A stretch of 64,000 bases of DNA from Nitrospirota bacterium (GTDB lineage Bacteria; Nitrospirota; Nitrospiria; Nitrospirales; Nitrospiraceae): assembly GCA_963701855.1 (NCBI GenBank), contig CAVPBK010000004.1, positions 288,001-352,000 of the forward strand. Reading direction: 5' to 3'. Both the position numbers and the translations under genes were made by a program. Below the pieces are notes generated by a model. That model ran no database searches. It had not been told where the DNA came from and saw only the letters and a program-made list of their open reading frames with translations. Below, piece by piece: positions 6,635-10,495 of this stretch. Position 1 is the stretch's first letter, and the number at the start of each line of letters is the position of its first letter.

Positions 6635-7210
6635 TCAATAAGTATCCGCATTCATCGGACCACGCACACACCAGGCGAGGTTCGTGCTGGTCACAGGTTC
6701 CTCGTCTACTAGGCCAGTATGGAAGTACACGTGCCACGCGAGAGTAGGATCCCATGCAACCGCCGTTGCCGACCAATAGGGGGCCCTCTGGACTCCGGGA
6801 AAGACGCTAAGTGGGACAAACGGCGCCAGCAACGACGGATCCTGCACGCTCTTTAACTCCACCACCGAAGGCAGCCGCCAGCCTGCTGTGCCCCCGACCA
6901 TCTTGTTTGCACAATATGAGCTTGCGGAGGTGGAGGATGCGCCGCTCCAGGGTCTGTTGTTGACATCAGGCGTCTGCTCCCACACCAGCCCCGTTTCGCG
7001 ATCCAAGACCGCTTCGTTGTTGAAATCTGCCAACACCACGAATCGTTTAGCGGATGGGATTTTGTTGCTCCACGATTTCAGGTGGGGCTGCGTCGATGGG
7101 TCAATCGTAGTCGAGTTCTCCGCACCTACTGGTGCGGTGAGAATCAGAGTGGCACCAATAACGAGAGTGCCGAGGACATAGGTGAGGTAGCTTCTTCTGC
7201 TGTGCATCAT
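6635..7210 (-). CDS. Secreted DUF1566 (Lcl C-terminal) domain protein
   Basis: Signal peptide; VLDRETGLVWEQ, YC..GWRLPSVVELKS, YWSAT, AWCVRG; AGGAG RBS before ATG 7210. Confidence 0.85.
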   Translation of the reverse strand: MMHSRRSYLTYVLGTLVIGATLILTAPVGAENSTTIDPSTQPHLKSWSNKIPSAKRFVVLADFNNEAVLDRETGLVWEQTPDVNNRPWSGASSTSASSYCANKMVGGTAGWRLPSVVELKSVQDPSLLAPFVPLSVFPGVQRAPYWSATAVAWDPTLAWHVYFHTGLVDEEPVTSTNLAWCVRGPMNADTY

Positions 7211-7393
7211 GATGGTTCTCCTGTGTGGTGGGGTGATGTAACGAGCGGTCACAGCGATGAGAGGAACGACGCTATGCTTTAACACCCAATAAAGCAATGC
7301 CGCATTAGTGGTACATGACAGAACAGCTGCATACACTCTCAAATCTCCATCGCCGCAGTGGTGCACTCGACGCGATGTCAGCCGCCATGCTCG

Positions 7394-7522
7394 TCACGAT
7401 GACATTTTCGCAGTCGAAGTCAGCGCGCTGCGAGTCGAGATTGCTTTTACCTTCTTGGATCCAACGCCCCTTGTGCAGTCAGCGAGTGAGATTACCGCTG
7501 GCCCAAGCCATAGCATCTTCAT
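7394..7522 (-). pseudogene. Small ORF with strong RBS; probably a frameshifted lipoprotein-like gene
   Basis: AAGGAGGT RBS then MKMLWLGPAVISLADCTRG...; adding one G in the GGGG run gives CTRGRWIQEGKSNLDSQRADFDCENVIV... Confidence 0.45.
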
Positions 7523-7542: not shown

Positions 7543-7578
7543 AAGCTATCACTTAGATGTGACAGAATATGTCACATC
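7543..7578 (-). promoter_or_regulatory. Palindromic operator plus -10 element (candidate WYL-activated promoter 2)
   Basis: Perfect 9-bp inverted repeat GATGTGACA-N5-TGTCACATC (7556-7578); minus strand reads TGTCAC-N10-TAGCTT. Confidence 0.7.
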
Positions 7579-7687
7579 CCTTTGAGACAATGATTGGAGC
7601 AGGATTATCGAGGAGCGACAGAGGCAGGTGAGAGCTGATAAAGACCTGATGCGTTTTGCTCTTTCATCCTGGAAGTGATTCGATTTT

Positions 7688-8545
7688 TTAGATTGTCACA
7701 CGATAACGAGCTGCGAGTCTTTCGACATGAGCCTTCAGCCATGGTGGCTCAGTCTGATTGCGCCATGATTCCCAGAGTTCAGCGTATGTAAGCATCTCGA
7801 ATGAAGGCGCTATGGGCCTAATCCAGTTCCTGAAATCATCGACTTCCATGCGATGTTTTCTGAATTCTTGGATGTCAGACCAATTCATTGGTTCCCAGAA
7901 AAGGTAAAGAAGAGAGCGCTTGCTCTCCTGGAAAGTATGAAACAAACCCAACCAGTGTTTAATCAGTTGCGCGGCATCCAGATAGTGATAGCGATCTGGG
8001 TGCCGGCGTAACTCCTCTATGTAAGGGAGCCAAGATGCCGTGCGCGAGTCGTCCTTGATGTTGTCATATGCGGCCACGAATTTTGCGATCTTTGGAGTCA
8101 GGTACTCCAGGCATTTAGATTCAATTCCAAGAACCACTTGCCCTGCCGTGAGCAGAGCGTCCAGATGAGGAGGGGTTCCTTGTAGGCCTGTCGGACATTT
8201 AGCTTCGAACTTCATTGCTGCAAATCTCTCGTGTCCTTTGATGCGCAAGCTTCCGGGATCAGCTCGCCATCGTGCGAACGTGTTCACCACTAATGCTGAG
8301 GATGAACGAATGGCCGCCATTTTTTCAGGAGCCCCTTTCTGTGGCTCCATTTCCTGCCCCCCGTTCTTATAGTCCTCCTTAAACAGTGAGCAAGTGATTC
8401 CCTCTACGAGATTGGCTTCAAAGTTCTCGGCATAGAACTCACGATCGTCACCTGTGCCCACCTCATGTAGAGCATGGTCGCCTTTCAGGCGAGCAAAGTT
8501 GTCTCGAAGCCCTCGTTTACACCTGTCAAGCACAGAATTATTCAT
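7688..8545 (-). CDS. PD-(D/E)xK restriction-endonuclease-like protein (resembles PGN_0703 family)
   Basis: SSSALVVNTF, FEAKCPTG, PPHLDALL..GIESKCLE, YLDAAQLIKH, LLYLFWEP; overlaps the SurE-like stop by 8 nt. Confidence 0.7.
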   Translation of the reverse strand: MNNSVLDRCKRGLRDNFARLKGDHALHEVGTGDDREFYAENFEANLVEGITCSLFKEDYKNGGQEMEPQKGAPEKMAAIRSSSALVVNTFARWRADPGSLRIKGHERFAAMKFEAKCPTGLQGTPPHLDALLTAGQVVLGIESKCLEYLTPKIAKFVAAYDNIKDDSRTASWLPYIEELRRHPDRYHYLDAAQLIKHWLGLFHTFQESKRSLLYLFWEPMNWSDIQEFRKHRMEVDDFRNWIRPIAPSFEMLTYAELWESWRNQTEPPWLKAHVERLAARYRVTI

Positions 8546-9380
8546 AGAGTGAACCTCGGTTTGAGTCCTTCACCGCAAGGGTGACCGAATTTGACCATAC
8601 TCCATTCTTGAATCCATTTAAACAGGCATTATTCAACTCGCAAGCCCAGCGCACTGAATCGGCCGAAGTGTTCAGAGGCCTAACCAGTGGAGGGACAACA
8701 TTCAGACAGAGAGGTGACACAACGATGTACCCACGTTCAAGTTCTGTCACATCGCATCCCTCTGTCTTCCTGCTCTCAGCCTTAAATGGACGGAACCGGG
8801 AGTGATAGGCGACGGAACATACTTTCCAGCCCTTCGGATTGCTCGCTGGAAAATTGACATTCCAACACAACCCTGTCGCTCTGGGCCCATTTCTTAGGAA
8901 CGTGCGGATAAATGCGATCTTGTCATCGAGTTGCAGGCGGTACCTTTTTGAATTCATCGCCTCCTGATGATCACACTGCTGCGAGAAGGCCACCGCCGCC
9001 GTTCCGAAAAATGTCGAGGCGAGCATGGCCATCCCTACTGTCCCCGAATGAAACACATCCATTCCAATATTCTCGCCATGATTGATTCCGGTTAACACCA
9101 GATCGAAACTCCCATTTTTCAGAAATCGTTCAGGCTCCCCTAAGGCAAGATAAATCAAGTCTGCGGGTCTCGCATCACAGACATAAAAGTGAGAAGCGAC
9201 TTCCTCAACGACAAAATCATCAAGTAGTTGTGGCGTAACGGAAAGGCCCTGGCCCCCCACAGATTTCCTGGGCACAAAGGTTACGATTGTTGCATCTGGA
9301 TAGGCCGCTTCCGTTGCGGTTTGGAGTGCTTTCAACCCCTCAGAACCAGGTCCGTCATCATTTGCGATTAGAATATTCAT
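8538..9380 (-). CDS. Divergent SurE-family nucleotidase/phosphatase
   Basis: MNILIANDDG, RPADLI, TGINHGENIG..HSGTVG, WNVNFP; atypical C-terminus; no pcm/nlpD neighbours. Confidence 0.85.
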   Translation of the reverse strand: MNILIANDDGPGSEGLKALQTATEAAYPDATIVTFVPRKSVGGQGLSVTPQLLDDFVVEEVASHFYVCDARPADLIYLALGEPERFLKNGSFDLVLTGINHGENIGMDVFHSGTVGMAMLASTFFGTAAVAFSQQCDHQEAMNSKRYRLQLDDKIAFIRTFLRNGPRATGLCWNVNFPASNPKGWKVCSVAYHSRFRPFKAESRKTEGCDVTELERGYIVVSPLCLNVVPPLVRPLNTSADSVRWACELNNACLNGFKNGVWSNSVTLAVKDSNRGSLYE

Positions 9381-9420
9381 CTCGTCAGTCTCCGTGGGAT
9401 GTCTATTAGGAATGACCGGA

Positions 9421-9455
9421 AGTCTACTACCTGGGCATGACAGAATACGTCACGC
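9421..9455 (-). promoter_or_regulatory. Palindromic operator plus -10 element (candidate WYL-activated promoter 1)
   Basis: Minus strand GCGTGACGTATTCTGTCATGC, then TGTCAT-N10-TAGACT; 15/16 identical to the core of the 7556-7578 site. Confidence 0.7.
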
Positions 9456-9484: not shown

Positions 9485-10495
9485 TCATACGTGGGAGTAA
9501 TGCTTGAGAGACTTCGAGAGTTGGTCGATCATAATCTTTACTAACTTAGGAGGACTGAGCACCTTCGCTTCTTTTCCCCACGACAGTACCCACCAAGCAA
9601 TCTCATCCAATCCACCGGCATGAAAGCTAACTTCCACCGATCCATTTTTGAGCTTCTTAGTGCGCTGGCTAGGATGCCACTGACGTTCTTGCATGAAATG
9701 GGTGACTTCCTTGCTGAACACAATTGTCACTTCCTGCGGTAGTTCTTCGATTAGCCCGAACTGTTGGGCATACCGATCAGTGGAGAAATAGGCGGCAGGG
9801 ATCTCAAAGCGATCTTCGGTCAATGTGACCTGTTTCATCCGGTCCACCGCAAAAAGACGCTCTTCCCCGGAGCGGTGGGAATACCCTTGCACATAGAGGC
9901 CGTGGTCGTACAGCACAAGGGCATAGGGATCAACGCGGTAGATCAATGCCTTATTTGCACCTGGTTTCTTATAAGTCAGGTCTACAGTGAGTTGTAGCAG
10001 TAGCGCAATGCGAAGCTGCCGCAGCAGATCATTCTTTTCGACGTACGCCCGCGTCCCTCGCTGAAGCGGCGCAAACACCTGGACAATTCGTTCTAGATGA
10101 TTCGCGGTTTTCGCGGGCAACGATGCCGCCACTTTCGCAATAACTGCATCCAGGTCTTGCATGAATGGCGTGTTCTTCAGATGACTGAGATTCGATCGAG
10201 CCATCTGAAGGGACATGAGTTCATATCGGGTCAGCGTGATCGGTGGGAGACCCTTGTATCCAAGCGGCAATTGCCATTGTTTTTCACCGGCATCATCCGA
10301 GGAAGTCAGTGGATGACCTTCTGCTTCAATTTCCTCTAAATCTCGACGTACCTGCCTGGAACTGACGTTGAAGTCTTGGGCAAGATCTTTGATGGTCACG
10401 CCTCGGCTGGCCAGAGTTCTCATCATGCGAGCGAGGCGATCTGCCTGAGTATAGACCCCGCTCTTGCGCCCTCTCGATTTGTGCCGGTTATCCAT
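9485..10495 (-). CDS. HTH-WYL-WCX transcriptional regulator (PafB/C, DriD-like)
   Basis: N-terminal wHTH (DLAQDFNVSSRQVRRDL), WYL (YRVDPYAL..GLYVQGY..RLFAVDRM), WCX (WWVLSWGKEAKVLSP). Confidence 0.93.
   Translation of the reverse strand: MDNRHKSRGRKSGVYTQADRLARMMRTLASRGVTIKDLAQDFNVSSRQVRRDLEEIEAEGHPLTSSDDAGEKQWQLPLGYKGLPPITLTRYELMSLQMARSNLSHLKNTPFMQDLDAVIAKVAASLPAKTANHLERIVQVFAPLQRGTRAYVEKNDLLRQLRIALLLQLTVDLTYKKPGANKALIYRVDPYALVLYDHGLYVQGYSHRSGEERLFAVDRMKQVTLTEDRFEIPAAYFSTDRYAQQFGLIEELPQEVTIVFSKEVTHFMQERQWHPSQRTKKLKNGSVEVSFHAGGLDEIAWWVLSWGKEAKVLSPPKLVKIMIDQLSKSLKHYSHV

Follow-up and report, generated by a model that had tools for sequence, protein, structure and literature searches.

The closest described counterparts of the locus reported here are regulators built around a WYL domain. 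DriD binds the box ATACGAC(N7)GTCGTAT as a homodimer, in which the bases read by Arg37 and Arg41 are G2 and the G facing C4 in CGAC-N7-GTCG, and Glu40 touches C1 (PMC10853764, PMC13004042). A three-helix bundle is the mark of homodimeric WYL activators, and 68 of 69 alpha-proteobacterial DriD homologues have a box in their own promoter (PMC10853764). DriD promoters lack a -35 element and carry the box over the place where it would lie, at a single set spacing to the -10; sigma adaptation is not the mechanism (PMC13004042). PafBC of mycobacteria recognizes the motif tGTCgg(N10)tA(N3)T and inserts between sigma region 4 and DNA (PMC8635444). Two further homodimeric WYL activators are SiwR of Mycobacterium smegmatis, which acts on adjacent genes through an imperfect palindrome between -35 and -10 (PMC10693628), and DdaA of Moraxellaceae, which controls DNA-damage and anti-phage genes including CRISPR-Cas and restriction genes (PMC12392091). 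In the regulators CapW and BrxR, RWHVR occupies the WYL position (PMC11662680). Here we analyzed a 64,000-nucleotide (nt) stretch of a Nitrospirota genome (the window) that encodes a WYL regulator next to two promoter-like sites, which an original prediction had described as PafBC-like and attributed to a homodimeric WYL activator. The observation was confirmed and the interpretation is partly supported: the regulator is probably a DriD-like homodimeric WYL activator acting at two local promoters that lack a -35 element.

The sites and genes of the window described here lie on the minus strand. Site 1 (9455-9421) reads GCGTGACGTATTCTGTCATGCCCAGGTAGTAGACT and site 2 (7578-7543) reads GATGTGACATATTCTGTCACATCTAAGTGATAGCTT, and both sequences are present exactly as originally quoted. 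Each contains an operator of the pattern GTGAC-N7-GTCAC with the centre RTATTCT. Operator 1 (9437..9453), GTGACGTATTCTGTCAT, has one mismatch to the palindrome, and operator 2 (7559..7575), GTGACATATTCTGTCAC, is a perfect 7+7 palindrome (ATGTGAC/GTCACAT). At both sites the gap between palindrome and TAnnnT is exactly 10 nt, which bears out the equal spacing first noticed: the -10 hexamer of site 1 is TAGACT (9421..9426), without TG at -15/-14, and that of site 2 is TAGCTT (7543..7548), preceded by TGA as in an extended -10. Written on the PafBC formula, the hexamers adjoining the operators give TGTCAT-N10-TAGACT at site 1 and TGTCAC-N10-TAGCTT at site 2. A consensus scan found no sigma-70-like -35/-10 promoter at either site, in agreement with the predicted lack of a canonical -35. 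Transcription start sites (TSSs) are predicted near 9414 and 7536 from promoter geometry only. The accompanying claim that each site lies just upstream of a start codon holds for site 1, where a SurE-like gene starts with the ATG at 9380; at site 2 the ATG at 7522, which has a strong AAGGAGG before it, opens a decayed lipoprotein frame.

Within the window, GTGAC-N7-GTCA has three matches at two places (0.49 expected; 1 of 100 shuffles reached three), and the 17-mer, with up to three mismatches, is found at sites 1 and 2 alone (0.27 expected; 0 of 100 shuffles reached three). Across the genome (4.30 Mb in 15 contigs, labeled G000), the loose pattern GTGAC-N7-GTCA gave 54 matches versus 22 in a reversed control and, being common genome-wide, means little on its own. 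The composite pattern TTCTGTCA[CT]-N10-TAnnnT, by comparison, occurs only at sites 1 and 2 in the whole genome and has no match in the reversed control. A 33-position matrix of the full site, built from 19 sites that include the three of the window genome itself, scored 43.8, 40.5 and 35.8 at three places; the next best score was 12.3, the level of shuffled genomes, in which a mean of 1.7 scores exceeded 12 and none exceeded 18. A genome-wide regulon was rejected because the matrix scan yields these three sites only. The half-motif TGTCA[CT]-N10-TAnnnT is not enriched either (20 versus 28 in the control) and, with three sites in the genome, the idea of a PafBC-like response could not be upheld.

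These results also bear on whether the palindromes are RNA hairpins that terminate or attenuate transcription of the upstream genes, or match by chance, which we regard as the least credible of the readings considered. Sites 1 and 2 do lie directly past stop codons, and site 2 folds as a 10-bp hairpin (-19.3 kcal/mol, z -2.3). Site 1, however, has no fold at the palindrome (z -0.49), and a scan found no T-run or terminator-like element at either site; on these two grounds the hairpin or terminator reading was rejected. Chance is excluded by the shuffles, the reversed controls, the matrix scan and the phasing in relatives described below.

The third high-scoring place belongs to a decayed second module on contig C6 (L009 5331-7757, equivalent to G000:C6:1212330-1214756), made up of an asparaginase/WYL-WCX remnant, an intact operator and an AAA-ATPase gene. 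The remnant is the only other WYL match in the genome; it is 47% identical, lacks the helix-turn-helix (HTH) and is fused in frame to a broken, frameshifted asparaginase gene. Past its stop codon come GCGACCTATTCTGTCGC, 10 nt and TAGGTT (GCGAC-N7-GTCGC-N10-TAGGTT), followed by the AAA-ATPase gene, which encodes 311 amino acids (aa) versus 422 aa in the relative at L046. The operator-N10-TAnnnT arrangement at this remnant means that the geometry recurs at an independent locus.

Fragments of the motif are scattered more widely. Other places containing TATTCTGTCA were considered as regulon members and rejected, as they fall within coding sequence or repeats and show no -10 phasing. The shorter string ATTCTGTCA[CT] occurs 27 times across the genome versus 2 in the reversed control, and most copies have nothing to do with the WYL sites; paralogous coding sequence accounts for some (C6:34907, C6:1151859) and long inverted repeats for others (C3:34221/34418, C6:1464018/1464082). 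At G000:C12:86868-86884, between genes, stands an orphan sequence resembling the operator, GCGACGTATTCTGTCAC (two mismatches), with no TAnnnT at N10; it has TATTCTGTCAY-N-TAGTACG in common with C4:3976-4002, inside an open reading frame (ORF).

We then turned to relatives, searching 401 genomes of the phylum with the WYL protein. It matched at E <= 1e-20 in 93 of them, its own genome counted, and the matches form two tiers: an orthogroup whose members are 45-87% identical to it, and a second family with about 30% identity. Among the 18 orthogroup loci examined (L013-L029 and L032, L013 being the window's own), 16 have the palindrome, with at most two mismatches, within 450 nt past the WYL gene. 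The list of these palindromes was drawn up blind to the downstream sequence, and all 16 are followed by TAnnnT after exactly 10 nt. The motif is thus present beside orthologous WYL genes, as the original prediction required, and the 10-nt spacing is clearly kept in relatives through spacers that vary in sequence. As for the other two loci, L027 has a three-mismatch palindrome with the same spacing to TAnnnT, and L028 lacks a palindrome and carries an in-frame stop in its WYL gene. GAC-N7-GTC is kept in every operator. By hand count, TG stands at -15/-14 in 16 of the 19 matrix sites; the three without it include site 1 of the window. The exact composite pattern occurred 1, 4, 0, 3 and 5 times in five genomes (13 in total) and never in the reversed control.

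In the second family, for which nine loci were examined and L041 was left out of the site tables, a perfect GTGAC-N7-GTCAC lies past the gene in eight of nine loci, with TAnnnT at N10 in three and near-matches in four. At four of its loci (L036, L037, L040 and L042) the first perfect palindrome, of the GTGACCTCGGATGTCAC type, sits at the WYL stop codon without a -10 hexamer; a second palindrome, about 100 nt beyond the first, has the hexamer at N10. One relative (L045, 8153-13802; G177:C7) has WYL genes of both families 3.7 kb apart on opposite strands, with different operator subtypes: the centre is ATATTCT for one WYL gene and CTTATCT or CCTGGAT for the other.

The regulator is encoded at 9485..10495 as a single protein of 336 aa with the order HTH-WYL-WCX (Pfam HTH_11, WYL and WCX), confirming that the protein adjacent to the sites is one WYL regulator; it is a lone gene, with no PafB/PafC pair or fusion. 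Its best solved relative is DriD (8tp8 and 9pfq series; E 4e-21 over residues 17-328; identity about 23%), compared with E 4.7e-5 for PafC and no match at E 1e-3 for CapW/BrxR chains. A structure model built on a 23-sequence alignment (mean pLDDT, a predicted per-residue confidence, of 76.9) has a winged HTH, a three-helix bundle (residues 90-140; helices 90-102, 110-125 and 128-140), and the domains WYL and WCX. Its template modeling (TM) scores were 0.73/0.75 to DNA-bound DriD (8tp8_B), 0.33-0.39 to PafBC and about 0.3 (0.26-0.31) to CapW/BrxR. R47 and R51, the counterparts of DriD Arg37 and Arg41 in the alignment, are the same in all 23 sequences of both WYL families. The position of DriD Glu40 is Arg50 here and is R, Y or H by clade. 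At the WYL position the protein has GLYVQ (residues 199-203), and RWHVR is not there.

Residue 50 is R or Y where operators are of the form GTGAC/GTCAC; in L026, L027 and L029 it is H and the operators have GTCGC at their end, so that residue and outer operator base may co-vary judging by these sequences.

The prediction of a homodimer gained qualified support from modeling. The dimer model scored 0.58 (best of three controls, 0.01), passing a mark that 20 of 30 solved same-chain pairs attained, as did 1 of 23 proteins whose solved form is a single chain. Runs shared at least 93% of contacts with a partner pLDDT of at least 76, and the modeled interface comprises WCX and the helical bundle. 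Since DriD dimers have already been solved, this pass may only reflect likeness to them and is no independent proof.

While the N10 spacing fits DriD and PafBC alike, protein, palindrome and dimer all point to DriD. PafBC was accordingly the wrong comparator; the site, too, resembles the DriD box in being a full palindrome and is not a lone -26 half-site. The same holds for the suggested PafBC-like sigma adaptation: its geometric part stands, operator-N10-TAnnnT being equal to the PafBC motif, but the protein is nearer DriD, whose mechanism differs, and by analogy the mechanism here is probably not sigma adaptation either.

The sequence features with their conservation and phasing, the homology to DriD and the insertion described below are observed; how the protein binds and regulates, which ligand it senses, where transcription starts and what the cargo does we infer as follows. 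The two winged-HTH domains of the dimer would use Arg47 and Arg51 to read the GAC-N7-GTC core of the 17-bp palindrome, which would span about -39 to -23 of a promoter without a -35, its promoter-proximal half-site placed exactly 10 nt before TAnnnT. A ligand in the WYL/WCX pocket, which by homology could be single-stranded DNA (ssDNA) from damage or phage replication, would free the HTH domains and let the dimer bind its operator, and the bound dimer would then assist assembly of RNA polymerase with the housekeeping sigma factor. The regulator is thought to act locally: promoter 1 would drive an inserted SurE-like nucleotidase and a stand-alone PD-(D/E)xK nuclease, and promoter 2 would be the ancestral target, now before a decayed small lipoprotein gene.

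Several points weigh against a DriD-like activator. First, the TG at -15/-14 makes 16 of the 19 sites extended -10 promoters. Second, no box lies upstream of the regulator gene, unlike in 68 of 69 alpha-proteobacterial DriD homologues (PMC10853764); none resembling TATTCTGTC (up to one mismatch) was found in the 250 nt upstream of 29 WYL genes examined, and the operator sits after the regulator gene instead. Third, the box-to--10 distance of DriD is our own reading of printed probe sequences, in which the box and 10 nt are followed by CAATCT (driD promoter), CAAGGT (didA) or CAAGCC (bapE) (PMC13004042), and the portion of the paper text searched has no explicit statement of a box-to-TSS distance. 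Fourth, orthologous sites are of common descent, so that the 16 of 16 phased palindromes and similar counts overstate independent support. Lastly, the ssDNA pocket is conserved in part: considering DriD residues Y168, R176/R178, Y192, R204, R207, Y240 and R288, mapped by eye on alignments, the equivalents of Tyr192 (Y201) and Arg204 (R213) are invariant and W206 is replaced by F215, but the contacts of Arg207, Tyr240 and Arg288 are not kept in the orthogroup (A216, Ile and Asp, respectively).

An extended -10 can free a promoter from the need for a -35, and the TG in 16 of 19 sites therefore also makes a repressor on such promoters plausible. Here the WYL protein would be CapW/BrxR-like and would sit on a palindrome over the -35 region of constitutive extended -10 promoters until a ligand releases it and de-represses potentially toxic cargo. 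The cargo here and in relatives is indeed of defense type (a nuclease, cas3-cas5 and a toxin-antitoxin pair), and known defense-linked WYL regulators are mostly ssDNA-sensing repressors (PMC11662680). We nevertheless consider a repressor rather unlikely. The protein is much nearer to the activator DriD than to CapW/BrxR in both sequence and fold, and it lacks RWHVR; there is no operator before its own gene, and site 1 itself has no TG. Simple occlusion, moreover, needs no strict 10-nt phasing across divergent spacers, and defense cargo is also compatible with activation, as DdaA drives CRISPR-Cas and restriction-modification genes (PMC12392091). Activation instead of repression is what we infer for the DriD-like regulator.

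The genes around the sites follow the order CsgG/PDZ lipoprotein, WYL, promoter 1, SurE-like, REase-ARP, promoter 2 and the ATG at 7522. The CsgG/PDZ lipoprotein gene (11756-10500) ends 4 nt before the start of the WYL gene, and this pair is syntenic in three relatives. The first gene behind promoter 1 (8538..9380) encodes a divergent SurE-like nucleotidase of 280 aa (Pfam SurE, 6.7e-31), whose 108.9 bits fall under every NCBIfam SurE equivalog cut-off (135-436); with a housekeeping SurE of 213 bits on another contig, C6, it represents a second copy. Its stop overlaps by 8 nt the REase-ARP gene (7688..8545), a single-copy gene for a PGN_0703-family protein of 285 aa with the PD-(D/E)xK nuclease fold (Pfam PF22558, 9.8e-21), in which D129, E142 and K144 (D...ExK) are invariant in a 24-sequence alignment. 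The term 'REase-ARP' was not met in the literature searched for that name. Behind promoter 2 lies the decayed small lipoprotein gene (7300..7522, the 3' end being approximate); its three frames, translated and set against the proteins of L043 and L044, show it to be split over all three and to hold a stop. Blastn gave 72% identity over 262 nt, and intact homologues of 74-75 aa stand behind the operator in the two closest relatives. As the genome is a metagenome-type assembly, the decay may reflect assembly errors. PADLOC matched the WYL protein only, leaving the SurE-like and REase-ARP genes unmatched. In one metatranscriptome run (9% of sampled words), 16 short contigs with 90-99% likeness covered parts of three genes; they stem from relatives and cannot show starts, strand or expression.

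A further gene, for a secreted Lcl_C-domain protein (6635-7366, minus strand), lies downstream of the decayed lipoprotein gene and is missing from the relatives' loci.

Comparison with relatives indicates how this arrangement arose. The SurE-like, REase-ARP and Lcl_C genes were missing from all five syntenic or orthologous loci compared. Homology to relatives runs from the 3' end of the WYL gene to 9438, where it stops inside operator 1, and it restarts at 7575, the first base of operator 2, continuing into the lipoprotein gene at 72% identity. With breakpoints inside or at the operators, the 1.86-kb segment between them (7576..9436), which holds the spacer and -10 of promoter 1, both cargo genes (SurE-like and REase-ARP) and 112 nt of 3' flank, represents an insertion flanked by two operator copies. 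As homology restarts at operator 2, this is the ancestral operator of the locus, and the ancestral promoter now faces the decayed lipoprotein gene.

The exact flanking by two copies could also mean that the 17-mer is chiefly a recombination or insertion site (attachment-like or a target duplication) whose likeness to a promoter is incidental, and the variation of the cargo behind it among close relatives would fit. We hold this to be very improbable: the ORFs listed beside the insertion include no integrase or transposase homologue, the palindrome matches the DNA-reading residues of the adjacent regulator, and the -10 phasing is constant, including at insertion-free loci. Recombination at the 17-mer is in any case compatible with a regulatory role and secondary to it.

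In the two closest relatives, whose regulators are 87% and 79% identical, the cargo is the 74-75 aa lipoprotein; in other close relatives it is a DnaG-like primase paralogue, or an AAA ATPase followed by a DUF2779 protein. In genomes with multiple sites, the downstream genes encode Cas3-Cas5, two DnaG-like proteins, HD_4 hydrolases, vWA proteins and a DUF4258/MqsA-like pair. At one such place (L130; G279:C1:4059000-4063100), a composite operator-promoter lies 36 nt before cas3 (HD and helicase), followed by cas5, an arrangement which suggests that a WYL regulator controls this type I CRISPR-Cas operon of the relative G279.

The inserted gene pair itself does not form a conserved system. A SurE plus REase-ARP system was rejected, REase-ARP having no fixed partner: a single-protein locus search for it found nothing, and an alignment-based search of 347 relatives kept 80 REase-ARP loci, with a SurE-like gene nearby in one and a WYL gene in one. 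Neighbours at 25 loci (50 of 88 ORFs, those with full flanks, in list order) were heterogeneous and included Mrr nucleases, a methylase, integrases, transposases and a phage capsid, which are the neighbours of defense islands and mobile elements. In L050 (3652-5968), the one locus that has both genes and part of a Nitrospira-like genome, REase-ARP and a SurE-like gene (51% identical to that of the window) are convergent, and each has its own perfect GTGAC-N7-GTCAC-N10-TAnnnT; tblastn with the window protein (E 1e-4) found no WYL gene within 4 kb on either side of the REase gene.

Taken further, the operator with its phased -10 might be a portable socket in Nitrospirota, in which cassettes carrying their own copies are swapped by operator recombination, and the 10-nt rule of PafBC, DriD and the two Nitrospirota WYL families might be a general law of WYL activators. 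We put this forward tentatively and think it less probable than not. The cassettes would be the SurE-like and REase-ARP genes here, and cas3-cas5, HD hydrolases, DnaG-like primases and toxin-antitoxin genes in relatives. If it is true, new cargo would be wired at once to a damage or phage signal behind a DriD-like sensor that is expressed constitutively.

Nitrospirota include the main nitrite oxidizers of soils, waters and treatment plants and are hard to grow. To our knowledge there is no routine genetics for them and, with both of these obstacles, knowledge of their promoters and regulators is scarce; no title or abstract that we found joins Nitrospir* and 'WYL domain'. The locus would add a phylum to those with DriD-type WYL regulators and offers a testable rule (GTGAC-N7-GTCAC, 10 nt, TAnnnT) that names a regulator and small target sets, including the CRISPR-Cas operon of one relative. 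It also brings out an equal 10-nt phasing across three separately studied systems. It reveals no new mechanism. A WYL activator would likewise be no novelty in Gram-negatives, where DriD (Caulobacter) and DdaA (Moraxellaceae, PMC12392091) were already known; activators of this design have been described in Actinobacteria (PafBC and SiwR), Alphaproteobacteria (DriD) and Moraxellaceae (DdaA).

Set beside these systems, the locus shares with CapW and BrxR the HTH-WYL-WCX order, a palindromic site and defense cargo, but those proteins are autoregulated repressors with RWHVR, are encoded upstream of their operon and match the protein here neither in fold (TM about 0.3) nor at E 1e-3. With PafBC it shares a GTC-containing element followed after 10 nt by TAnnnT, the lack of a -35 and two arginines reading the GTC triplet. 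PafBC differs in being a PafB/PafC heterodimer or fusion that uses a single HTH on a -26 element that is not palindromic and has a regulon of about 150 genes, recA among them, compared with three sites, a single gene and a full palindrome here, and its match to the protein is only E 4.7e-5 and TM 0.33-0.39.

SiwR and DdaA can be likened by description only. SiwR is similarly local, with a palindrome lying in the short gap that separates the regulator gene from a two-gene cargo operon, but it is actinobacterial and has DinB-superfamily cargo. The DdaA motif, CGWCA-N5-TGWCG, has an equal core spacing, and its control of CRISPR-Cas resembles the composite promoter before cas3-cas5 in G279; it differs in its genome-wide regulon, which replaces SOS, and in a motif about 50 bp upstream of the TSS.

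DriD is the best match in sequence and fold, with the same domain order (winged HTH, three-helix bundle, WYL and WCX), a palindromic box with a GAC-N7-GTC core, an AT-rich centre and G and C conserved at the CGXC-N7-GXCG spacing, both base-reading arginines and -35-less promoters in which the box stands at a fixed distance from the -10. Its driD promoter probe, ACGACCGTTTCTGTCGC, contains TTCTGTC like the sites here (PMC13004042), and a DnaG gene is among the Caulobacter targets, just as DnaG-like paralogues are among the putative targets in relatives here. At about 23% identity the two nevertheless differ: several ssDNA-contact residues are not the same, and with three local sites in the genome no recA-type targets were seen. 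The features of its own that mark the Nitrospirota locus are a box past the regulator gene and not in the regulator's own promoter, mostly extended -10 elements, a TGAC half-site instead of CGAC together with Arg50 in place of Glu40, a very small local regulon and a cargo insertion flanked by operator copies.

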